From contig CAYFGV010000004.1 of NCBI GenBank assembly GCA_964342845.1, positions 1-40,462 on the forward strand: a DNA stretch of 40,462 bases, read 5' to 3'. This DNA is from Candidatus Woesearchaeota archaeon. GTDB lineage: Archaea; Nanobdellota; Nanobdellia; SCGC-AAA011-G17; CAYFGV01. Both the position numbers and the translations under genes were made by a program. The notes below the pieces were generated by a model. The model did no database searches. It was not told the origin of the DNA and worked only from the letters and a program-made list of their open reading frames with translations. Below, piece by piece: positions 5,724 to 39,357 of this stretch; within the stretch, counting starts at the first letter, position 1, and the number at the start of each line of letters is the position of its first letter.

Positions 5724-6677
5724 TTATGTATAAACACTTCTTGCAATAGTTTTGTGGTAGGAAACAAGTGCTTTTAATTTTTCGCAAATTTTTATTACGC
5801 TTCTATTATTGCTTGTACTATTAGAAAGTTCGTTGCATTCTTTTATTAGTAGTCTGTTTTGATCAGCGACCTCGTATGCTAGCATTGTATCATTTTTATA
5901 GTGTGCTTTCATAACTTTGTTATAATGTTCTTCTACTTTTACATAAAGATCTAAGAATCTATCGACTATTTTTTTATCTATTGTTTCTTCAGTAAGATAT
6001 CTAGAAGTTCTTTTAATCTCATCAGCAATTTTTTCCATGTTGGCAACAATTCGCCAAATGATAAATAAGTCTAAATGGTTTACATTCAGAGATCTAAAAA
6101 TTTGTGGGTTCATAAATGCTTTTCTTATTACTCTAAAAGAAAGATGATAAAGTTTGTTAACTTCTTTATCTCTATCTAACAATTCATTATAATTTTTGTA
6201 ACTAAAACTAGATCTTGATTTTTCAAACATTGATTTGATGATTATGTCCATTCTTCTGATTATATCTTGTAATGAAACTTTATTTATGTCTAGAAATTCT
6301 CTTACTTTTATTGTTTCATTGGTTTGTTCTGTTATTTCTAGAGCAACTAAGCCTGTAATAATATTTTTTATTTCTTTTAGTTTTTTTTCATCAAAATCTT
6401 TTGAGTAACTTATCTGAATTACGTTGTAGCCTTTAATATATGCTGAGACTAATTTTCTAGAGACTTGTTCAACACTATCTTTTGATTTGATGTTTATTTT
6501 TATCTTTTCGACGTCGCTTTTTTCTTCTATAGATGGTGTGATAATTAAGTTTCCTTCAGAGTTTTCTTCGAAGAATACGTTATTTCCTTTTTTTAATTCG
6601 TTCTTTTTAATCCAATAACTAGGTAAAGATATTACAAATGAAGAGTTTCCAAACTTAATTAATTTCCTTTGTTCCAC
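5724..6677 (-). CDS. archaeal phosphate-uptake regulator-like protein (AbrB N-terminus plus PhoU domains)
   Basis: 'RKLIKFGNSSFVISLPSYWIK..L.KG' AbrB motif, then AY..GY, D.EVNKLY and 'MEKIADE' PhoU repeats. GTG start with a purine-rich SD. Confidence 0.85.
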   Translation of the reverse strand: MEQRKLIKFGNSSFVISLPSYWIKKNELKKGNNVFFEENSEGNLIITPSIEEKSDVEKIKINIKSKDSVEQVSRKLVSAYIKGYNVIQISYSKDFDEKKLKEIKNIITGLVALEITEQTNETIKVREFLDINKVSLQDIIRRMDIIIKSMFEKSRSSFSYKNYNELLDRDKEVNKLYHLSFRVIRKAFMNPQIFRSLNVNHLDLFIIWRIVANMEKIADEIKRTSRYLTEETIDKKIVDRFLDLYVKVEEHYNKVMKAHYKNDTMLAYEVADQNRLLIKECNELSNSTSNNRSVIKICEKLKALVSYHKTIARSVYT

Positions 6678-13091: not shown

Positions 13092-13231
13092 TGTGAAATG
13101 CTAGAATTTTGGGATCTTGTAGCTATAATTCTTAGTAACGTTGTTTATAGAAAATAGCTAATAAGTTTTTAGCATTGCAAAATTTTCTACACTTGCGTGA
13201 GGTTTATAAGGGTGTTAGTATTATTATAAGG

Positions 13232-14068
13232 ATGGTAAAAAAAGATAAATCTTTGGCTGTTTTTCAAGGGAAGGGTATTAGGAGAATATGGCATAAAGAT
13301 GAGTGGTTTTTTTCTGTGGTTGATGTTGTAGGTGTTTTAATAAATAGTGAGAATCCTCGGAATTATTGGAAGGTTCTTAAACATCGTTTAAATGATGAAG
13401 GGAGCGAGGTGGTTACAAAATGTAACCAACTGAAATTAAAGGCTTCTGATAGTAAATATTATGCTACTGATTGTGCAAATACAGAAAATATATTTAGAAT
13501 AATTCAATCTATTCCTTCTAAAAAAGCCGAACCTTTTAAGAGTTGGTTGGCTAAGATAGGATATGAGCGCGTTCAAGAGATAGAAGACCCAGAGTTAGCA
13601 CAGAAAAGAATGAAAGAAATCTATAAGCAAAAGGGTTATTCTGATGAGTGGGTTGAAAAAAGAGTTAGAGGGATAGCGATAAGAGATGAGCTTACAGATG
13701 AATGGGGTAAACGAGGAGTAAAAGATGATTTAGGTTATTCTATTTTAACTTCTGAAATATCTAAGGCTACTTTTGGAGTGAGTCCTAGAGAGTATAAGAA
13801 GTTTAAGGGTTTAAAAAGAGAAAATCTTAGAGACCATATGGATGATATTGAGCTTGTTCTTACAATGCTTGGAGAGACAACTACAACAAGATTTACTAGA
13901 GATAGAGATTCTAAAAGATTTTTTGAGTTGAAAAAAGATGCTAAAGATGGTGGTGATGTTGCTGGAGATACTAGGAAGAATATAGAGAAAAAACTTGGGA
14001 AGAAAGTTATTTCTAAAGAGAACTATCTTTTGAAGGAAGAGAAGAGGAAGAGGATTGAGAATAAGTAA
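13232..14068 (+). CDS. Bro-N domain (phage antirepressor-like) protein
   Basis: IRRIWH..EWFFSVVDVV, PRNYWKVLK.RL, RIIQSIPS.KAEPFK.WLA. TATA at about 13203 places the start at ATG 13232. Confidence 0.85.
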   Translation: MVKKDKSLAVFQGKGIRRIWHKDEWFFSVVDVVGVLINSENPRNYWKVLKHRLNDEGSEVVTKCNQLKLKASDSKYYATDCANTENIFRIIQSIPSKKAEPFKSWLAKIGYERVQEIEDPELAQKRMKEIYKQKGYSDEWVEKRVRGIAIRDELTDEWGKRGVKDDLGYSILTSEISKATFGVSPREYKKFKGLKRENLRDHMDDIELVLTMLGETTTTRFTRDRDSKRFFELKKDAKDGGDVAGDTRKNIEKKLGKKVISKENYLLKEEKRKRIENK

Positions 14069-14743: not shown

Positions 14744-15349
14744 ATGGAGAAAGAGTTTAAACAGGCTGTTAATACATATAATAAGATAGCTAAGCTTTAT
14801 GCTGATTATACTTATACTAAACTTATGCAATTTCAGTTAACTAAGTTTATTTCTTTGCTGAAAGGAAAAAAGGTTTTGGATGCTGGTTGTGGTGGTGGAA
14901 GAGATGTTGAATATTTTAAAGAAGAGGGTTTGAGTGTGCTGGGTATAGATATTTCTGAAGAAATGATTAAAGAGGCTAAAAAAAGGGTTTCTGGTGCTAG
15001 GTTTGAAGTTATGGATTTTAGTGATATTAAATTAAAAGATTCAACTGTTGATGGTGTTTGGTGTATGGCTGGTTTTTTGCATACTCCTAGAGATGAGATT
15101 GTTAAGGTTTTAAAAGAATTTTTTAGGGTTTTAAAGAAAGAAGGTGTTGTTTATGTTGCTGTTAGAGAAGGTGTTGGCGAGAAGGAGATTCGTAAAGAGA
15201 AGTATGGAAATGAGCCTAGAACTTATGTTTATTTTTCTAAGGAAGAACTTGTTGGTTATTTAGAAGAAGCTGGTTTTTCAATTGTAGAAGCAGAAGTTAA
15301 TGATGATGGTGGGAAGAAGTGGGTTGAGATTTTTGGGGAGAAGAGTTAG
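14744..15349 (+). CDS. class I SAM-dependent methyltransferase
   Basis: VLDAGCGGG, GIDIS, DGVW...FLH, LK.EG. Confidence 0.9.
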   Translation: MEKEFKQAVNTYNKIAKLYADYTYTKLMQFQLTKFISLLKGKKVLDAGCGGGRDVEYFKEEGLSVLGIDISEEMIKEAKKRVSGARFEVMDFSDIKLKDSTVDGVWCMAGFLHTPRDEIVKVLKEFFRVLKKEGVVYVAVREGVGEKEIRKEKYGNEPRTYVYFSKEELVGYLEEAGFSIVEAEVNDDGGKKWVEIFGEKS

Positions 15350-15740
15350 ATTCTTTTTTTGAAACTAAGTATATTAATAATATTGCTCCTATTACGTTAA
15401 CTGAATCTGCTATGTTAAAAATTGGCCAAATTTGTAAATCTATGAAATCTCTTACAAAACCAAAGTAGATTCTGTCGAATAAATTTGATAAAGAGCCTGC
15501 TATTAAGAAAGTTAGAGGCAGATAATATTCTTTGTTTTTTATTAGGTAGTATATTAAGAAAGAGATAATTATTATTGTTGTCAAAATTAGAAATGTTGTT
15601 TGACCTGTTAAAATACTAAAAGCTGCTCCTGTGTTTTCTGCATAGTTTATTATTCCTTTATGTACATCTGTAAATATTATTTTTGTTAATTGATCTAAAA
15701 AAATGATTATAAAAGAAATTAAAAGTATTCTTTTTACCAT
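15297..15740 (-). CDS. lspA: lipoprotein signal peptidase II
   Basis: DQLTK, NTGAAFS, G..SN..DR, VRDFI and FNIAD (both catalytic Asp), hydrophobic segments. Confidence 0.9.
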   Translation of the reverse strand: MVKRILLISFIIIFLDQLTKIIFTDVHKGIINYAENTGAAFSILTGQTTFLILTTIIIISFLIYYLIKNKEYYLPLTFLIAGSLSNLFDRIYFGFVRDFIDLQIWPIFNIADSVNVIGAILLIYLVSKKESNSSPQKSQPTSSHHHH

Positions 15741-16057: not shown

Positions 16058-16714
16058 CTAGTGGCTTTCTTGTTTATTTCCTTTTATGATTATTGTAGAG
16101 TAATCAAACCAAGTTAATTTTTGTAGTTCTTCTAAGTTTTCTTTTCTTATTTTACCTTCTTTAGTTAAACTTATTGGTCCTGTATCATGATATATAAAAT
16201 GAGTACTATCGTATCCTACAAGATATATATAATGTCCTTTTAGTTCATTCCTTTCTTTGTTTAATAGGTTAAAGTTGATTAATAGTAAAGGTATGTTTTC
16301 TTGTTCTAGTGCACATTCTAGATATTCTACATCTATTTTTTTATTTGTTCCTAGTTTTTGTTCTAGGACATATCCCATACATCTAAGAAGGTTTTCCGAA
16401 CTTATTTTTTGGAACATTTTACCTCCTCTTCTATACCCGTAGAACTCTCTCATTTTGTTTTCTAAGTCTGAGTTTAATGTTTCTATAAGTTCTTTTTCTT
16501 TGTATGGGTAATAAAAGCCAATTTTCTCTTGATGGAGAAAAGGTATTATTTCTATGGGAGAAATTAATTTATCTCCTTTTCTGTTTATCCCTCTTATAAT
16601 TTTCTTTGTTGAAAGAGTTATGCTAAAGTATTCTAACATTCCTTTTAAAGAATACTCTGTGCAGTAAGGTCCTTTATTTTGATAAAGTGGGACGGTTAAA
16701 AAGACATTTTCCAT
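16058..16714 (-). CDS. C39-like (papain-fold) cysteine peptidase, stand-alone
   Basis: VPLYQNKGPYC..SL.GML.YF (Gln/Cys) and GHYIYLVGYD...FIYHD (His/Asp). Confidence 0.75.
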   Translation of the reverse strand: MENVFLTVPLYQNKGPYCTEYSLKGMLEYFSITLSTKKIIRGINRKGDKLISPIEIIPFLHQEKIGFYYPYKEKELIETLNSDLENKMREFYGYRRGGKMFQKISSENLLRCMGYVLEQKLGTNKKIDVEYLECALEQENIPLLLINFNLLNKERNELKGHYIYLVGYDSTHFIYHDTGPISLTKEGKIRKENLEELQKLTWFDYSTIIIKGNKQESH

Positions 16715-16730
16715 TCTTTATTACCTTTCT

Positions 16731-17159
16731 CTATTTTCTATATCTTTGTCTGTAGTCATTATAAGTATCTGTATGTTTTCTACTAGTTTCGTCTGTATGA
16801 ATATCATCAAAATCAGTATGACTTCCCCGTCCTCTGTCACCTGCTCCGTAATCTGTTACATCACAGTGCGTTCCTGAAGTAGATTGGCGGTCTGTATGGC
16901 TATCTTCGTACCATGTATCTGAATGTCCATCTGTGTAATCTACATGGTCTTTATATTCTGAATAGTCACTGTGGTCTTTATAGTCTCTTTTGTGATAGTC
17001 TGCATGGTTATCTGAATGGCTGTCTCCGTAATTAAATAAAAATCTTCTTCCATCGTGAACCCTTCTATTGAATATTGAATTTAATCTTCTATTTTTAATT
17101 TTATTTAGATTTATTTTCCCCCCTTTAAATTCTATTATACATTCTTTTTTTTGATTCAT
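16731..17159 (-). CDS. putative RiPP precursor: basic leader plus His/Tyr-X-Asp repeat core
   Basis: 17 aromatic-X-Asp motifs in residues 44-135. SD AGGAGG. Lies between the rSAM/SPASM and peptidase genes. Confidence 0.8.
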   Translation of the reverse strand: MNQKKECIIEFKGGKINLNKIKNRRLNSIFNRRVHDGRRFLFNYGDSHSDNHADYHKRDYKDHSDYSEYKDHVDYTDGHSDTWYEDSHTDRQSTSGTHCDVTDYGAGDRGRGSHTDFDDIHTDETSRKHTDTYNDYRQRYRK

Positions 17160-17177
17160 TTTAATTGCCTCCTTAAT

Positions 17178-18290
17178 TTATTTTACCTCTGCTTTTTCTA
17201 ACTCTTGTTCAATTTTTCCTGCTATGTGTTGGAATAGTAGTTTGTAACTAGCACAATAATGATCTTTAGTATGGATATCTTCTGTGAACATATAGGCGTT
17301 GTGCATACACCCGGAATTACAAATTTTCTTATAATCACAACTAGTGCATTCTTCAATTTTTGAACTTCTTTGTCTTAGTTCACCTCTTTTTTCTGAAGTT
17401 AATACCTCATAAAGGTCGTTTTCATTTATGTTTCCTAGATTAAAATCTTCTATTCCTTCGAATCTTCCGCAAGGATAAATATCTCCTTCTGGACCTATTG
17501 AGATGAAACTACTTTGACATGAGATAGAATAATTACATCCCCAAGGTTCTTCTGTTAGAATATTTCCCATCAATTCTTCAAAAGGATCTATTGATACTGA
17601 TGAATCATCTTGAAACCACACATCAAATAGTTTTGTTAATGCTTTTCCGTATTCTGCTGAGCCAATACCTAAATCATGGTAGTTTATTGTTGCTTTTCCT
17701 GATTTAATAAGAGGGTTTAATTTAAGATTTATATTTTCTGTTTGAGCAAATTCATATATTTCTGTTAGGTAGTTTATGTTTAGCTTATTTACTACAACAA
17801 TAGCACCACCTCCAACATCTCTTTCTTGTGCTTTTTTGATTGCTTTTAGTGTTTTCTTAAAACTACTATTTTTGTTCTTAAAATGCCTTGTTCTATCATT
17901 TATTCTTTTTGGGCCGTCTAAACTAAACCCTAAATCAAAGCTGTATTCTTCACAAAAATCCAAAATTTCTTCAGTTACTAAAGTTCCATTAGTTTGGAAC
18001 CCGTTTGTTGTTTTTTTACCTGGGTATTTTCTTTGTAAATTGAGTGCTTTTTCATAAAATTCTATTGGCATCAACAATGGTTCTCCTCCGTGCCAAATAA
18101 AATGTACTATGTCATGAATTTCTAAAGATTTTGAAATCATATTTTCAAGGGTTTTATCATTCATTCTCTCTTGACTAGAATTATGGTCCGTATAACAATA
18201 TTCACATGAAAGGTTACATTCTGATGTTGGTTTGACTATTATTGAGAGTCTTCTTGGTGGTAATCTTGAATTTTTGGCTTTTTTTACCAT
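17178..18290 (-). CDS. radical SAM/SPASM peptide maturase
   Basis: KPTSECNLSCEYC, WHGGEPLL, QTNG, SLDGP. SPASM Cys set: CNYSISC, YPC, CTSCDYKKICNSGC, HYC. Confidence 0.92.
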   Translation of the reverse strand: MVKKAKNSRLPPRRLSIIVKPTSECNLSCEYCYTDHNSSQERMNDKTLENMISKSLEIHDIVHFIWHGGEPLLMPIEFYEKALNLQRKYPGKKTTNGFQTNGTLVTEEILDFCEEYSFDLGFSLDGPKRINDRTRHFKNKNSSFKKTLKAIKKAQERDVGGGAIVVVNKLNINYLTEIYEFAQTENINLKLNPLIKSGKATINYHDLGIGSAEYGKALTKLFDVWFQDDSSVSIDPFEELMGNILTEEPWGCNYSISCQSSFISIGPEGDIYPCGRFEGIEDFNLGNINENDLYEVLTSEKRGELRQRSSKIEECTSCDYKKICNSGCMHNAYMFTEDIHTKDHYCASYKLLFQHIAGKIEQELEKAEVK

Positions 18291-25329: not shown

Positions 25330-25608
25330 ATGAAAACTGTTAAAGTTTCGGATAAAGGACAAATAGCTATCCCTGTTGATATTAGGGAAGAAGCAGGTAT
25401 TGAAAGAGGAGATGAATTAGTTATTCTTGAATCTAATGGCAAAATTTTGCTGGAAAAGAGCGAAATAATTTCAACTAAAATGGAAGATGATTTCAAGGAT
25501 TTGTTGAAAGCTAGTGAGATGTCTTTAGCAAAAGATTGGTTAAGTAAAGAGGATGAAGAGGCATGGAAAAAGTTTAAGGTAAAAAATAAACCTAAGAAAA
25601 ATAATTAA
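25330..25608 (+). CDS. AbrB/MazE/SpoVT-family DNA-binding protein (antitoxin-like)
   Basis: VKVSDKGQIAIP.DIRE..GI..GD, with a C-terminal ASE.SLAKDW...EDEEAW tail. Confidence 0.85.
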   Translation: MKTVKVSDKGQIAIPVDIREEAGIERGDELVILESNGKILLEKSEIISTKMEDDFKDLLKASEMSLAKDWLSKEDEEAWKKFKVKNKPKKNN

Positions 25609-34249: not shown

Positions 34250-34284
34250 TTTTTTGAGGTCAAAAAATATTTTTTTTCTTTTTT
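34250..34284. terminator. possible terminator between convergent genes
   Basis: TTTTTTGA-GG-TCAAAAAA inverted repeat followed by a T-tract. Confidence 0.35.
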
Positions 34285-36005
34285 TAATAATTCATTAAAA
34301 TTTCCACATCTCCAAATAATTTTTTAAGAGATTCTATTGTTTTAGATTTAAGAATTAGTTCTTTAGGTGGTTTTATCTTAATTATCTCTTTTTCTAATTC
34401 TTCAGGATTTGCTTTTTGAAGATTAACTAATTCATCATTTTTTATGTCTGCTTTTTGGATTTCTTCTTTAGTTAGTATAAACGCTTGTTTTTCAAATAGG
34501 ATCAAATCACCAATTTCTTTTCTATACTTGAATTTAATAGTACATTTTTCAAGTTCGTTTCTTCTTAACCTTTGTATGTGTTCTGTTAATATTCTCATTA
34601 AAGTGGATGATTTTCTTTTTATTCTATCTAGTTCTGCTTTTGTTAGTTTCTTTTCTTGGAAATCTTTTCTAGCTTTTAGGATGCTTTTGAATATGTTTGG
34701 TAAGGAATCTGGTAGTTTGTTAGTTTCACAGTATTTTTTGAAAGCGGTTTCCATATTTTTGTATTTAATGCCTGATAAAACATCTCCAATAATTTGTGTA
34801 GAATCTTTATGTATTTTACTTATTGAATATTTTTCTTTTTTTCTGTTTATTTGATCGAATAGCTTCTTTATTCTTTTTAGATAATCTTCAGCTTTGATAA
34901 TTAAGTCATCTACTTCTTTTCCTTGTATTTCTTTTAATTTTCTGTGTTCTACTTTTTTGAATGTTACCCTTAGTTCTTCTAATATATCAATATATTTTTG
35001 TTCTAAAAGTTTCTCTTTTTTTACAAATATTTGTTGTAAAAGTTTTACTGTTTCTTTAGGTGATGGAGGAGCTATACCATAAAGCATTAAAGCAGCTTGT
35101 GATGGATTTAAGGCTGCGTAATAAAGATCTTCCATTACAATACTTATTAGTTTTGCTTTTGCTCTTTTAATTAATCCTTCACCTACTTCCATGTTCATGT
35201 CAATTGCTTCTGGAGAAGGTTTTATTCTTCCCATCTTAAGTAATAATTTCCAAGGTGTAAATGTTCCTCTATCAAATATTGGAACACCATCTCTTAATAG
35301 AGTGAAAATAACAGGGTTTGCTTCTTTAAGTGATTCCCAGAAATCTGTAAGGATATAAACTTGGATATGAAACTCTTTTTTTACTTGAGTGATCATTGAT
35401 GCTTCATCACCCATTGCAAGCATCATTCTTCTTAATCTATCTCTTAGTTCCATTCTGGACATTCTTTTTACGTCTGTGTCGTCTACTACAACGTATACAT
35501 CTATGTCATTAGCTTTTTCACCTCTGAATAAAGAACCAGCAGCAACATAACTGACAATATATTTTTCAAATTTCTTTACAGCCATGGTTTTGTGAACTTC
35601 TGATATTTTTAAAGCTGCTAACATTTCATTTGGATCATATATAGGGGCTCCAATTGCAATTAATTGTAATATTTCATATTTGCCATCAAAACACATTTCT
35701 TTTAATTCTGAAGCAAGAAGGATTTCTAAATATATTTTTTTGTCTATAGAGTTAGCTATTTTAATTAATTCAGGAGAAACTTTGTCTTTTATTTTATAAT
35801 CTGGTTGTTGTTCTGAGTTTGTATCATTTAAAAGAACAAGAACATTTATTTTGTCTTTTTGATCTTCTTTTGGAGGTAGTAAGGATATTCCTAGAACTTC
35901 TTTTTTGTGTTGTTTTACTGCTTTTTCTTTAAATTTTTCTAGTTTTGTTTTTATTTGTTTAAACTTTTCTTTTACATCTTTTGGAATTTCCTGTGGTGGG
36001 TTCAT
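34284..36005 (-). CDS. tandem nucleotidyltransferase plus HEPN-like multidomain protein
   Basis: Degenerate first NTase-like domain, intact second (GSLFRG...DIDVYVVVDD), then K.LLKMGRIKPSPEA and LYYAALNPSQAALM as in the 22.7-24.5 kb paralogues. Confidence 0.82.
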   Translation of the reverse strand: MNPPQEIPKDVKEKFKQIKTKLEKFKEKAVKQHKKEVLGISLLPPKEDQKDKINVLVLLNDTNSEQQPDYKIKDKVSPELIKIANSIDKKIYLEILLASELKEMCFDGKYEILQLIAIGAPIYDPNEMLAALKISEVHKTMAVKKFEKYIVSYVAAGSLFRGEKANDIDVYVVVDDTDVKRMSRMELRDRLRRMMLAMGDEASMITQVKKEFHIQVYILTDFWESLKEANPVIFTLLRDGVPIFDRGTFTPWKLLLKMGRIKPSPEAIDMNMEVGEGLIKRAKAKLISIVMEDLYYAALNPSQAALMLYGIAPPSPKETVKLLQQIFVKKEKLLEQKYIDILEELRVTFKKVEHRKLKEIQGKEVDDLIIKAEDYLKRIKKLFDQINRKKEKYSISKIHKDSTQIIGDVLSGIKYKNMETAFKKYCETNKLPDSLPNIFKSILKARKDFQEKKLTKAELDRIKRKSSTLMRILTEHIQRLRRNELEKCTIKFKYRKEIGDLILFEKQAFILTKEEIQKADIKNDELVNLQKANPEELEKEIIKIKPPKELILKSKTIESLKKLFGDVEILMNY

Positions 36006-36193
36006 TATAGTTCTAGGTCTCCATTTTCTATTGGATCTTCAAGGTCTAAACTTTCTTCTAAATCTTCTAAAGATTCAATGTCATCATCTAAATCTAGATC
36101 AAGATCTTCCTCTTCTTGTGTTTCTGTTGGTGTACAAGCAGTTACGCTTATTACTAAAGCAATTAAGAACAATGTAAATATTATTTTTTTCAT
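36005..36193 (-). CDS. small acidic lipoprotein (lipobox VTA-C20)
   Basis: MKK, hydrophobic h-region, VTAC. SD GGAGGTGA. TAATG overlap with the downstream gene. Confidence 0.75.
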   Translation of the reverse strand: MKKIIFTLFLIALVISVTACTPTETQEEEDLDLDLDDDIESLEDLEESLDLEDPIENGDLEL

Positions 36194-36283
36194 TTTTCGG
36201 ATTCACCTCCAAATTAAAATTTGTTTTTTACTTTATATAAACTTTTTGGATAAGTTTATAAGCGTTTCTATTTATATTTTTAT

Positions 36284-37018
36284 ATGGATCCTGTTGCATT
36301 TAGTGTTTTTGGCTTAGATGTAAGGTGGTATGGGATAGTATATGTTCTTGGTTTTTTATTTGGTGGTTGGTTAGCTGCAAAACTTGGTAAAGAAAGAGGA
36401 ATTAATAAGGAAGATGTTTATGATTTTTTAGTTTATCTAGTAATTGCTGTTATTGTTGGTGCTAGAATAGCTCATGTTTTTGGTGCTTTGGATTATTATT
36501 CTAGTAGATTAATAGAGGTCTTTTATGTTTGGAATGGTGGTTTGGCATTTCACGGCGGTTTAATAGGGGCAGTTTTAGTTGGATTGTGGTTTTGTAAGAA
36601 GAGAAATATTAAGTTTTATGATATGGCAGATATATTTTGTGTTCCTTTGGCTTTGGGCTTAGCTTTTGGAAGGATTGCTAATTTTATTAATGGGGAGTTA
36701 TATGGGAAGATTAGTGATGTTCCTTGGGCTGTTGAATTTGAAGGTGTTGATGGGAAAAGACATCCTAGTCAGATTTATGAGAGTTTGAAGAATTTCTTTA
36801 TTTTTATTGTTTTATGGAATTTGTATAAGATTAAGAAGTTGCCTTCTGGGTTTATCTTTTGGAGTTTTATATTTATGTATTCTGTGTTAAGGTTTTTTGT
36901 TGAATTTTACAGGGATTGGGAAACTGCTTTTATTGGATTGACTTGGCCACAGTTAGTTAGTGTTCCTTTAGCTGCTGTTAGTTTTTTCATTTTGTATAGG
37001 TTGTATAGGAAGATTTAA
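36284..37018 (+). CDS. lgt: prolipoprotein diacylglyceryl transferase
   Basis: RWYG, GARI, GGLAFHGG, GRIANFINGELYG, HPSQIYE, Y...RFFVEF.R. Archaeal TATA TTTATAA at 36255. Confidence 0.95.
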   Translation: MDPVAFSVFGLDVRWYGIVYVLGFLFGGWLAAKLGKERGINKEDVYDFLVYLVIAVIVGARIAHVFGALDYYSSRLIEVFYVWNGGLAFHGGLIGAVLVGLWFCKKRNIKFYDMADIFCVPLALGLAFGRIANFINGELYGKISDVPWAVEFEGVDGKRHPSQIYESLKNFFIFIVLWNLYKIKKLPSGFIFWSFIFMYSVLRFFVEFYRDWETAFIGLTWPQLVSVPLAAVSFFILYRLYRKI

Positions 37019-37043
37019 ATATGATTTGTGAATTCTCGTTTAG

Positions 37044-38117
37044 ATGGAAAATTTTGAAGAAAATAAAATAGAAGTGAATATAGACGAAAAGACAGATGAT
37101 GCAAAGACTGAAGAAGTGAAGACTGAAACTAAAGAAGCAGGAACAGAGGAAGAAAAGACTGAAGAAGTGAAGAAAGATGTTGCTGAAGAGCCTGTTGTTC
37201 AAAAACCAACTGTGAAGAAAAAAGTTAATCACTGGAAGATTGCTAGTGCTGTTCTTTTGGTGTTGTTTTTAGTATCTCTTTTTTCTGATGGGTTTACAGG
37301 TGCGGCTGTTTTTTCTGGCGAAGATATAGGAAAAGATGTTGCTGCAGAAACAACAGAGGATTTTGTTAACACACTACTTGCAGGACAAGTAACAGCAGAG
37401 GTTTTAGATGTTAGTGAAGAATATGGGTTGTATAAGGTTGAACTTGATATTGCTGGAGAAGAAACTGTTTCTTATTTATCTCCTGATGGTGAGCTTTTTT
37501 TCGCACAACCGATCGATATTGGAGAATACTTGAGTTACGTAGATAATACTGATACTTATGTAGATGATACTGTTGATGACGTAGAAGATGTAGTAGTTAT
37601 TGAGTTGACTTCAGAGGATAATATATTAGGGGAAGAAGATGCTCCTGTGACAGTAATAGAATATAGTGATTTTGAATGTCCTTATTGCGCTAATTTCTGG
37701 TCAGGTACTTTGCCATCTATAAAATCAGAGTATGTAGATACTGGAATGGTTAAGTTTGCTTATAGACATTTCCCGCTAAGTTTCCACGCAAATGCACAAA
37801 ATGCAGCAGAAGCTTCTGAGTGTGCTGGAGACCAAGGAATGTTTTGGGAGTATCATGACAAACTATATGAAAACCAAAACTATCTAGATATAGAGAGTTT
37901 GAAGCAATATGCTATTGATTTAGAATTGGATACAGAAGAGTTTAATGATTGTTTGGAATCTGGAAAGTATACAGAGAAAGTTAACGATGATATGGCATCT
38001 GGAGCACAGTACGGAGTTTCAGGAACACCTGCAACATTTGTTAATGGTATTCTAGTTACTGGAGCACAGCCATTTAGTAGTTTTCAAGCGATAATAGAGG
38101 CAGAACTTTCGTCTTAG
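37044..38117 (+). CDS. membrane-anchored DsbA/thioredoxin-fold oxidoreductase
   Basis: One TM helix, EYSDFECPYC, RHFPL, A.ASECA..QG.FW, GTP. Confidence 0.9.
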   Translation: MENFEENKIEVNIDEKTDDAKTEEVKTETKEAGTEEEKTEEVKKDVAEEPVVQKPTVKKKVNHWKIASAVLLVLFLVSLFSDGFTGAAVFSGEDIGKDVAAETTEDFVNTLLAGQVTAEVLDVSEEYGLYKVELDIAGEETVSYLSPDGELFFAQPIDIGEYLSYVDNTDTYVDDTVDDVEDVVVIELTSEDNILGEEDAPVTVIEYSDFECPYCANFWSGTLPSIKSEYVDTGMVKFAYRHFPLSFHANAQNAAEASECAGDQGMFWEYHDKLYENQNYLDIESLKQYAIDLELDTEEFNDCLESGKYTEKVNDDMASGAQYGVSGTPATFVNGILVTGAQPFSSFQAIIEAELSS

Positions 38118-38686
38118 TTAAAATTATTTTTTATTCCTTTTTTTAATATTTTTAAAATTAGAATTAAAGCTATTGCTTGGAAAACTATTACTGTTAAAAG
38201 ATTTTGTATTATTTCTTGGAAATAGGTTAAAGGGAATGTTTGGATTAGTTTTGTAGAAGAATCTAACAACCAATTGTTTGTTTCAAAAGTTAGAATATGG
38301 AATCCTGTGAAGAAGTTGCTGAAGTCTATTGTTGAGAGGAAAATGAAAATTAAAGTGATTATTAGAGTTAATGTTGTACCTGTTGATATAGAATTTAATA
38401 ATTTTGTTTTTTCTATTTTTACTAAGAATAGGGATGATAATGTTATAAGTATGAAAGTGATTGATACTATATAGCTTGATTTTGCTAATAAATCCTTGAT
38501 TTCTTGTAGATGTGTTTTTTCTTTTTCTGTGTAATCGTCTGACAAAGGTTGATCTTGGTTGAAAAAGTCGTCTAAGTCCTGGTGTTCTTCTATTTCATTG
38601 TAGAAAGTTGAATTTATGTTTAATAAGATTATAAATAGAGGGATTGAGATAATTATAAGTGTTGATAGTATAAATTTCTTTACCAT
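38114..38686 (-). CDS. DUF1461/Lit-like (lipoprotein intramolecular transacylase-like) membrane protein
   Basis: Four TM segments, 'E..HL.EIK.L' and 'F..FF..FH...F...NW......LI..FP..YF' with two His. Confidence 0.65.
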   Translation of the reverse strand: MVKKFILSTLIIISIPLFIILLNINSTFYNEIEEHQDLDDFFNQDQPLSDDYTEKEKTHLQEIKDLLAKSSYIVSITFILITLSSLFLVKIEKTKLLNSISTGTTLTLIITLIFIFLSTIDFSNFFTGFHILTFETNNWLLDSSTKLIQTFPLTYFQEIIQNLLTVIVFQAIALILILKILKKGIKNNFN

Positions 38687-39357
38687 AGTGTGATTGATAG
38701 AAAGAAAAGAGTTATAAGTATTCCTAATAGAAAGAAGAACGTTTTTTCTATTTTTTCTTCTTGGGGGATTATGTCACGAGCTACTATGTAAATTAATGTT
38801 CCTGTTATAAAACTGAATAAAGGATAGTATATTTGAGGGTTTAATGTTATAAATGTGGCTGTTAACGCACCTATAGTAGTTGAAGAAGCTAAGATTATTT
38901 TTATGGTTTTAGATTTTGATGTTTTGTGAATAACTTGAAGTAAAATTGAAGATGATATGGTTAATAGGATGAATGGGATTAATATTATGAAGCTTATAGC
39001 TGTTGTTAATAAAACTAATGTTGCACCTATAATGAAATGTTCTAGAAAGAATGCTAGAGAGTGTACATTTGTTATTTCTTTTTGAAGTATTTTTTTGTTG
39101 TGGATGTGGTGGCAAATTTCTTTTTCTAGTAAATGGAAAGAAATGAAGCCTAAAAGTAAGAAAATGTATACTTTATCATTTATAATTTTTGTTCCTTCTA
39201 TTATTTGGGGAAGTAGTTCTAAGAATATGATTGTTAATAAAATTCCCGCACTTAAACTTAGAAGTTGTTTATAATATTTTTTTGTTAGATTTGCGAAGTA
39301 GTCTGAGAATAGATGTAGTAAACTTAAGAGTATTGCTAGTATTATTGGAATGTACAT
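38680..39357 (-). CDS. ZIP-like divalent metal transporter (divergent)
   Basis: SLSAGILL...FLELLP, FHLLEK, His loop, G.LIYIV..DIIP. Confidence 0.65.
   Translation of the reverse strand: MYIPIILAILLSLLHLFSDYFANLTKKYYKQLLSLSAGILLTIIFLELLPQIIEGTKIINDKVYIFLLLGFISFHLLEKEICHHIHNKKILQKEITNVHSLAFFLEHFIIGATLVLLTTAISFIILIPFILLTISSSILLQVIHKTSKSKTIKIILASSTTIGALTATFITLNPQIYYPLFSFITGTLIYIVARDIIPQEEKIEKTFFFLLGILITLFFLSITLW

Follow-up and report, generated by a model that had tools for sequence, protein, structure and literature searches.

Homologues of Lgt, LspA and Lit in a nanoarchaeal genome and across its phylum: a candidate bacterial-type lipoprotein pathway and its probable lipid donor

Does an archaeon mature its lipoproteins with enzymes of the bacterial type, and if so, from which lipid would these enzymes draw? 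The question is raised by contig CAYFGV010000004.1 of a Candidatus Woesearchaeota archaeon (assembly GCA_964342845.1, phylum Nanobdellota), of which all 40,462 nucleotides were analysed; this stretch, called the window below, is the whole of contig C4 in an assembly of 573,122 bp and 28 contigs. A first-pass annotation, made from the sequence without database searches, had described on it genes for a prolipoprotein diacylglyceryl transferase (Lgt), a lipoprotein signal peptidase II (LspA), a protein resembling the lipoprotein intramolecular transacylase (Lit) and a small peptide with a lipobox, all among archaeal genes. All four genes are present and their setting is archaeal (Table 1). The answer that we favour, with a probability of roughly 0.6, is that the genome encodes a working bacterial-type lipoprotein pathway, which would act on acquired ester phospholipids and would yield lyso-form lipoproteins.

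Gene identities and predicted substrates

The Lgt homologue matches PF01790 over its full length (profile positions 1-239 of 240) with 245.4 bits at a cut-off of 24.9, and E. coli Lgt (5azb) with an E value of 1.4e-37; the motifs WYG, FHGGL, GRxxNFxNGELxG and RxxVEFxR are in register, so that the identification by signature motifs made in the first-pass annotation holds. The positions that we take to be essential in the E. coli enzyme (Y26, H103, R143, N146, E151, G154, Y235, R239 and E243 in its numbering) are all kept in the window protein when it is aligned to 5azb, both arginines included, and across 15 archaeal Lgt sequences there is no variation at Y16, H90, G91, G92, R130, N133, E138, G141, Y199, R203 and E207. 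R143 and R239 are also named as essential for E. coli Lgt in the relevant part of Hong et al. (PMC12462473). The differences lie mainly in length: the solved E. coli chain has 300 residues as opposed to 244 in the window protein, and the alignment splits at query positions 154/158 versus chain positions 169/195, leaving about 22 E. coli residues without a counterpart. Identity to the nearest bacterial Lgt among the matches listed is 35-44%.

LspA, which the first-pass annotation had placed at about 15.3 kb, matches PF01252 with 92.3 bits (cut-off 25) and S. aureus LspA (6ryo) with an E value of 5.2e-18. The segments NTGAAF, GSLSNLFDR, RDFID and FNIADS align to the conserved boxes of the S. aureus protein, including both aspartates, which we take to form the catalytic dyad. 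The window protein differs from that of S. aureus in being short, and its gene lies 20 kb away from lgt.

The Lit homologue matches PF07314 (formerly DUF1461) with 62.7 bits (cut-off 24), the match covering profile positions 73-176 of 176, i.e. the C-terminal 104 positions, and B. cereus Lit (7b0o) with an E value of 1.3e-7. A word-based homologue search with this protein as the query returned the protein itself and one other. Fifty homologous lit loci were gathered from genomes of the same phylum and 48 of them were aligned with the window protein; the two left outside the alignment are L015, where the called open reading frame (ORF) is over-long, and L038, where there is no matching ORF of at least 130 aa. 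The archaeal homologues share only 15-32% identity with the window protein. Nevertheless, H59, F122, H130 and F134 are invariant in all 49 aligned sequences, and D62, V63, F126, F129, W139, P152 and F156 are conserved to at least 90% (the equivalent of V63 in 48/49, the window protein having Ile; F126 in 46/49; W139 in 47/49). Both histidines are found in 51 of 51 sequences, i.e. in the window protein, the 48 homologues, L015 and L038. The conserved set maps to His85, His153, Val89, Phe145, Phe149, Phe152, Phe157 and Trp162 of B. cereus Lit. In the part of PMC8275575 that deals with these positions, the catalytic dyad consists of His85 and His153 as judged by mutagenesis, and Val89, Phe149, Phe157 and Trp162 are among the conserved residues reported for Lit.

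A profile built from the 49 archaeal sequences aligns to 7b0o over profile positions 5-210 of 214 and chain positions 20-229 of 237, with an E value of 2.4e-35. The AlphaFold2 (AF2) model of the window protein (predicted local distance difference test, pLDDT, 96.7; predicted template modelling score, pTM, 0.89) has four transmembrane helices and an extracytoplasmic cap. In a Foldseek search of the PDB with this model the top 6 matches are Lit chains with template modelling (TM) scores of 0.73-0.82, and the next match has an E value of 1.6. The partial Pfam match is explained by a shorter first extracytoplasmic loop and does not point to a truncated or different protein. The window protein, known here from sequence and model, thus shares with the Lit proteins of B. 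cereus and E. faecalis the helices, the cap and the fold (TM 0.82), and with B. cereus Lit both catalytic histidines, the aromatic pocket and the full-length profile alignment; it differs from B. cereus Lit in an identity of only about 19-20%, in its 190 aa with the shorter loop, and in its archaeal host. By sequence, catalytic residues and modelled fold the gene is a member of the Lit family, in agreement with the DUF1461/Lit-like label of the first-pass annotation. A kinship of the Lit-like gene with LhaT, an N-acetyltransferase of Bacillus, was considered too and was rejected, LhaT being a member of another family, DUF1405, according to the relevant part of PMC12345273.

It could be argued that Lgt and LspA mature lipoproteins and that the Lit-family gene has an unrelated role, e.g. 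in metal handling or envelope stress. In the window lit is convergent to the lgt-dsbA pair and not co-transcribed with it, it abuts a gene for a ZIP-type metal transporter, and its product matches merely the C-terminal part of the Pfam profile. The full-length match of the archaeal profile and the fold match to a characterised enzyme speak against such a role, as does the distribution of the gene, which is given in the next section.

The genes for candidate substrates are found both beside lgt and elsewhere in the genome. The lipobox peptide noticed beside lgt in the first-pass annotation is a 62-aa ORF with a signal peptide, the lipobox VTAC, which matches the lipobox pattern, and a very acidic mature part; it has no Pfam family. 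We take it as a real gene and as a candidate lipoprotein substrate. It shares one base of its stop with the start of the gene that follows, a 573-aa ORF, and because of this overlap co-transcription of the small acidic lipoprotein with the large protein is suggested. A genome scan of ATG-initiated ORFs of at least 40 aa with the published lipobox pattern gave 17 matches. We judged 14 of these convincing, and nearly all of them read L-[SAT]-G-C; three matches (C2:18153-18371, C5:4563-4709 and C10:1536-1766) were set aside as probably spurious or doubtful. In a greedy set of 742 ORFs there were 15 matches, as opposed to a mean of 0.41 and a maximum of 4 in 300 shuffles of the N-termini, and cysteine is the most enriched residue at position +1, 9.1-fold over its proteome frequency of 1.18%. 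Of the 13 candidates outside the window eight carry domains of extracytoplasmic type and five have no family; the domains are beta-helix/NosD, cupredoxin, SNase, GHL15, thioredoxin, PIG-L, arylsulfotransferase-like and transglutaminase-like. A scarcity of lipobox proteins, which the first-pass annotation had named as a possible objection to the pathway, was therefore not found, as there are about 14 convincing candidates versus some 0.4 expected.

Judging from their sequences, Lgt, LspA and Lit very probably act together in the maturation of lipoproteins. Precursors with a Sec-type signal peptide and a lipobox of the form L-[AST]-[GA]-C would be exported, Lgt would put the glyceryl-lipid moiety of a phosphatidylglycerol-type lipid on the thiol of the cysteine, LspA would cleave before the lipidated cysteine, and Lit would shift the sn-2 acyl chain to the freed alpha-amino group, which would give lyso-form lipoproteins. 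Among the RNA runs listed none was found to contain the region 35800-38800, a result that speaks neither for nor against the pathway.

Distribution in the phylum and relation to AliA

The distribution of the three families was followed in a sample of 301 genomes, namely G000 and 300 genomes of the phylum that are at least 90% complete, evenly drawn and all marked as 'same class'. Two unpublished genomes, G243 and G244, each with Lgt, LspA, Lit and the PlsC-type acyltransferase discussed below, enter the tallies and no other claim. Lgt (PF01790) is present in 265 of the 301 genomes, LspA (PF01252) in 266 and Lit (PF07314) in 223, and in the window's own order a hand count of the rows gives 57/58, 58/58 and 40/58, respectively. 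Both Lgt and LspA are missing in 25 of the 301 genomes; this and the other paired counts below come from a comparison by hand. Lgt and LspA are thus near universal in the phylum and represent a trait of the lineage, not a peculiarity of one archaeon. The Lit family, in turn, is much commoner in this phylum than in typical bacteria, since it was matched in 1 of 10 named bacterial controls and, among all 14 named control genomes, only in Lactococcus.

The co-occurrence of the three genes bears directly on the role of Lit. As many as 214 of the 223 Lit-positive genomes are also positive for Lgt, and LspA is present in 8 of the remaining 9. Seen from the side of Lgt, Lit accompanies it in 214 of 265 genomes, and the 51 Lgt-positive genomes without a Lit match mean that Lit is not obligatory, a point that also favours an unrelated role of the gene. 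Gene order argues for a common role: three relatives (L017, L018 and L021) have lit and lgt as overlapping genes of an operon, the two are adjacent or within about 3 kb of each other in at least 7 more genomes, and lspA abuts lit in G253. All in all, we consider it improbable that the Lit-family gene stands outside the pathway.

A quick maximum-likelihood tree built from 94 Lgt sequences contains a branch, with 99% support in the Shimodaira-Hasegawa-like approximate likelihood ratio test (SH-aLRT), that separates all 23 archaeal rows from 70 of the 71 bacterial rows. The lone exception is L100, a long-branched contig of 5,964 bp from an 'Armatimonadota' metagenome-assembled genome (MAG). In the two checks suggested in the first-pass annotation, phylogeny and co-occurrence, the archaeal Lgt sequences form a separate group and the three families are found in most genomes of the sample. 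The tree was drawn from a biased sample, taken among the matches listed, and candidate donors such as bacteria of the candidate phyla radiation (CPR) were not sampled, so no conclusion on the donor of lgt is drawn from it. As a side observation, the L100 Lgt neighbours the window Lgt in the tree, its own branch being very long, and that of L085, from a 'Methanosarcinales' MAG, also falls with the nanoarchaeal group; this may be due to nanoarchaeal contigs in the wrong bin, to a long-branch artefact or to real transfers.

Could the genes have come into the assembly by contamination or, as the first-pass annotation had considered, by a chimeric join? Lgt, LspA and Lit are families typical of bacteria, the region is covered by independent contigs that are short and of low depth with none spanning the whole of it, and the bridging pieces stem solely from a run that shares its sample with the possible source. 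However, the run of another study (marine metagenome contigs) contains lgt and lit pieces that show 0-1 differences, the contamination of the assembly is estimated at 0.07% (with a completeness of 84.8%), and GC is even along the window (0.27-0.35, about 30%) and across the 28 contigs (0.29-0.32). The same contig encodes the archaeal proteins eIF2-gamma, S6e, aIF5B, L7Ae and L10e on the upstream side of lgt. A chimeric contig is made very unlikely above all by the presence of the same genes in most genomes of the phylum at the counts given above, single-contig genomes included, and often as lit-lgt operons; the separate group formed by the archaeal Lgt sequences points the same way. Contamination and chimerism are already contradicted by these data and are practically excluded. 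The source genome is best read as that of a marine DPANN archaeon with 573 kb and 30% GC, i.e. a host-dependent nanoarchaeon. The closest public Lgt among the matches listed belongs to an unclassified 'archaeon' MAG (53% identity), and the next relatives among them belong to Nanoarchaeota and Candidatus Woesearchaeota MAGs (43-46%).

These results have to be compared with the published view of archaeal protein lipidation. AliA and AliB are described as the first archaeal lipoprotein lipidation enzymes identified (Hong et al. 2025, PMC12462473). In the part of that paper concerned, no archaeal Lgt/Lsp homologues are reported, the same is repeated in a 2026 follow-up (PMC13631571), and this absence forms part of the argument for AliA/AliB in both. 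That most genomes of a phylum ranking among the largest in Archaea carry canonical Lgt, LspA and Lit contradicts the two papers in these passages (PMC12462473, PMC13631571). AliA/AliB of H. volcanii (arCOG02177/02178) have the same task, the lipidation of the lipobox cysteine in an archaeon, yet their family is unrelated or at most marginally similar to Lgt, with an HHpred probability of 29% in Hong et al. (PMC12462473). In one part of Supplementary Data 3 of the same paper, AliA/AliB are scored 0/0 in 24 of 25 Pacearchaeota and 7 of 7 Woesearchaeota, and likewise in AR15, AR20 and one 'Nanoarchaeota archaeon' (34 of 35 Woese- and Pacearchaeota-type rows); Nanoarchaeum, Nanobsidianus, Aenigmarchaeota and Nanohaloarchaea have at least one AliA/AliB there, and so do most Micrarchaeota and Diapherotrites. 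Lipoproteins are still predicted in AliA-less genomes in Supplementary Data 1, with rows such as 12/42 and 20/49. The words Lgt, LspA and prolipoprotein do not occur in five supplementary files of the paper.

The bacterial Lgt/LspA set fills these gaps in the published occurrence of AliA. For the phylum sample we took the Pfam family DUF63 (PF01889) to be equivalent to AliA (arCOG02177, supercluster COG01967); among the controls DUF63 matches M. jannaschii, H. volcanii and M. acetivorans and does not match Sulfolobus or the others, and a literature search for DUF63, COG1967 and PF01889 gave only unrelated papers. Eight of the 301 genomes are positive for DUF63 and none of the eight is positive for Lgt or LspA, so the AliA-type enzyme and the Lgt/LspA set are mutually exclusive in this phylum. 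In a profile search the window's own genome (84.8% complete) was negative for DUF63/AliA. A further 17 of the 301 genomes, e.g. those of families f32 and f37 with sizes of 0.5-0.9 Mb, lack Lgt, LspA and DUF63 alike. The distribution fills a gap in the picture of archaeal protein lipidation and offers a natural case of non-orthologous replacement, in which the bacterial set would have displaced the archaeal AliA-type enzyme early in the phylum and would have been inherited vertically since.

Taken one by one, the three enzymes belong to known families as ordinary members, and automatic annotation names them already (Atlas cluster names). The new points are their distribution throughout the phylum, the conserved Lit included, their mutual exclusion with AliA and the consequences for the lipid. 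An earlier report of Lgt/Lsp in Woesearchaeota or DPANN was not found in the accessible literature, a scope that left subscription journals and some supplements largely outside; the main text of Castelle et al. 2021 has no mention of diacylglyceryl enzymes or signal peptidase, and a literature search for Lit/DUF1461 in archaea gave only unrelated papers.

The lipid donor

The genome of the window, at 84.8% completeness, gave no match to the ten lipid-synthesis markers tested, which include GGGPS/PcrB, the UbiA-type prenyltransferase, CarS and Fe-ADH_2/G1PDH as archaeal-type markers, PlsC, PlsY and the GpsA N-domain as bacterial-type markers, and CdsA and CDP-alcohol phosphatidyltransferase as shared ones. 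The look for GGGP synthase and G1PDH that the first-pass annotation had suggested thus gave no match to either. Lnt (apolipoprotein N-acyltransferase, PF20154 N-domain) was not matched in this genome either. Although each of the ten absences is weak at this completeness, together they make lipid auxotrophy likely, and it has likewise been inferred in reconstructions of Pacearchaeota (the part of PMC11537232 concerned). Since no lipid synthesis of either kind was found in the genome, the lipid donor would be taken up from other cells.

The nature of this donor may be read from Lit. The enzyme shifts the ester-bound sn-2 acyl chain to the alpha-amino group via a cyclic intermediate (PMC8275575, in the part on its reaction). 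An ether-linked chain would not be movable in this way and an ester-linked sn-2 chain is needed, so the donor would most likely be an ester-linked, bacterial-type diacyl phospholipid.

The marker genes of the phylum can be set beside this requirement. Full-length GGGPS/PcrB (PF01884) occurs in 1 of the 301 genomes, G277, which is DUF63-positive and Lgt-negative, and the matches in 19 further genomes are all short, with 26 bits or less. The PlsC-type acyltransferase family (PF01553), which was matched in each of the 10 bacterial controls and in none of 4 archaeal ones, is present in 96 of the 301. Six of the PlsC loci were examined (G002, G100, G117, G041, G118 and G058). In G002 the order is lgt, a DsbA-like gene, a cupredoxin gene, a gene for an 809-aa fusion of AMP-binding, phosphopantetheine-carrier and PlsC-type acyltransferase domains (L157:4324-6753, minus strand) and a phosphopantetheinyl transferase gene (L157:6750-7088, minus strand). 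The same fusion, with 823 aa, is found in G100 (L162:487-2958, plus strand), and in at least 9 of the sampled genomes the PF01553 match is surrounded by an open frame of similar length. In G117 two short PlsC-like genes stand in tandem, in G041 and G118 a PlsC-like gene lies at most 3 kb from lgt, and in G058 one lies beside lspA. From their domain order the fusions look like enzymes for the activation of fatty acids and their esterification onto glycerolipids, i.e. for scavenging or re-esterification. Some Woesearchaeota are said to have a bacterial glycerol-3-phosphate (G3P) dehydrogenase and fatty-acid genes in the part of Castelle et al. 2021 (PMC8204110) that treats them.

Ester phospholipids are the most likely donors because the Lit site is kept, lit is tied to lgt, and the phylum is without GGGPS but has acyltransferases. 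Taken by itself, the proposal that the lipid of these cells is of the ester type and that lyso-form lipoproteins are made appears somewhat better than an even bet on the sequence data. The first-pass annotation had set enzymes adapted to ether lipids beside ester lipids obtained from outside; between the two, the evidence leans to ester.

In the former case the enzymes would have adapted to the ether lipids of archaeal hosts, so that Lgt would attach archaeol from archaetidylglycerol, LspA would cleave normally, and Lit would, for example, use another acyl donor or merely bind the lipidated N-terminus. In the archaeal lipoproteins that have been studied, the lipid is thioether-linked archaeol (PMC12462473, in the part concerned), Pacearchaeota are assumed to take archaeal lipids from archaeal neighbours (PMC11537232, likewise), the window genome is without an acyltransferase, and the phosphate-binding arginines of Lgt, the R143 and R239 named above from PMC12462473, would suit either head group. 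However, 51 of 51 sequences retain the Lit dyad and its aromatic pocket in spite of identities of 15-32%, which is hard to explain if the chemistry has been lost. Moreover, the lineages with an AliA-type enzyme lack Lgt and LspA, with the lone full-length GGGPS genome being one of them, and bacterial-type acyltransferases are found in 96 genomes, with fusions for the activation of fatty acids beside lgt. We therefore regard the adaptation to ether lipids as rather unlikely.

There are a few points that weigh against the proposed pathway on ester phospholipids and need to be discussed. Firstly, the acceptance of sn-glycerol-1-phosphate ether lipids by Lgt cannot be read from a sequence, and in the published view Pacearchaeota are assumed to have archaeal neighbours as donors. 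Secondly, the window genome lacks the PlsC-type gene, which is present in only about one third of the genomes sampled, and the acyltransferases of PF01553 form a broad family. Thirdly, the equation of DUF63 with AliA is an assumption that has the pattern in the control genomes as its only support. The Lgt-positive genomes without Lit and the biased sample of the Lgt tree, both described above, belong here as well.

Even though it is a tentative idea, which we hold to be possible but somewhat less than probable, we speculate that AliA was replaced by Lgt, LspA and Lit in the early radiation of Woesearchaeota and Pacearchaeota because the cells lived with ester (bacterial) phospholipids. These lipids would come from bacterial partners or from fatty acids scavenged via the Aas-like fusion enzymes. 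If this is true, the presence of AliA versus Lgt/Lit in a DPANN genome would report the type of membrane and the domain of the host, and a large and abundant archaeal clade would stand on the bacterial side of the lipid divide. Bacterial hosts for DPANN have been raised as a question (Castelle et al. 2021, PMC8204110, in the part concerned). The need of Lit for an ester bond makes the membrane type of lipid-auxotrophic DPANN, and their possible bacterial hosts, testable on three small genes.

Flanking genes and coordinates

The coordinates of the features in the window are collected in Table 1. The archaeal TATA promoter that the first-pass annotation had assigned to lgt is present as a TATA-like element, read from the sequence; it carries little weight, as such elements are common in a genome of 30% GC.

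Table 1. Features of the window discussed in the text
Feature	Position	Strand	Remarks
ORF of the three-ORF set (see text)	5724-6677	-	
ORF of the three-ORF set (see text)	13175-14068	+	
lspA, lipoprotein signal peptidase II homologue	15297-15740	-	147 aa; PF01252
Protein next to lspA	16058-16714	-	weak, sub-threshold Peptidase_C39-like and guanylate-cyclase-like matches
ORF next to lspA	16731-17159	-	142 aa; no family
Radical SAM/SPASM protein next to lspA	17178-18290	-	
ORF of the three-ORF set (see text)	25330-25608	+	
ORF downstream of the lipobox peptide	34284-36005	-	573 aa; no Pfam family; no evident signal peptide
Candidate small lipoprotein ORF	36005-36193	-	62 aa; start MKKIIFTLFLIALVISVTAC; signal peptide and lipobox VTAC
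Shine-Dalgarno-like GGAGGTG	36204-36210	-	10 nt upstream of the ATG of the 62-aa ORF; read from sequence
TATA-like TTTATAA	36255-36261	+	centre 26 nt upstream of the lgt ATG; evidence weak
lgt, prolipoprotein diacylglyceryl transferase homologue	36284-37018	+	244 aa; PF01790
DsbA-like thiol:disulfide oxidoreductase, membrane-anchored	37044-38117	+	357 aa; CPYC; 25 nt downstream of lgt
lit, lipoprotein intramolecular transacylase homologue	38114-38686	-	190 aa; PF07314; convergent with the dsbA-like gene

The gene between lgt and lit encodes a DsbA-like protein that matches Thioredoxin_4 with 123.5 bits and DSBA with 76.3 bits. Similar neighbours of lgt occur in relatives: a DsbA-like gene in G002 (L157:1858-2538, minus strand), a gene for a GILT-like thiol reductase adjoining lgt in G118 (L160:1471-2565, minus strand) and a small thioredoxin-like ORF with CPYC in G251 (L018:283-588, minus strand). 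The repeated pairing of lgt with a thiol oxidoreductase may be linked to the reactivity of the lipobox cysteine or to the folding of exported lipoproteins.

The genes next to lspA, spanning 16058-18290 on the minus strand, have a layout that resembles a peptide-maturation cluster. The set of three ORFs marked in Table 1 consists of a Bro-N domain protein, of a family frequent in viruses and mobile elements, and of two proteins with a MazE/AbrB-type DNA-binding domain, one of which is fused to PhoU.

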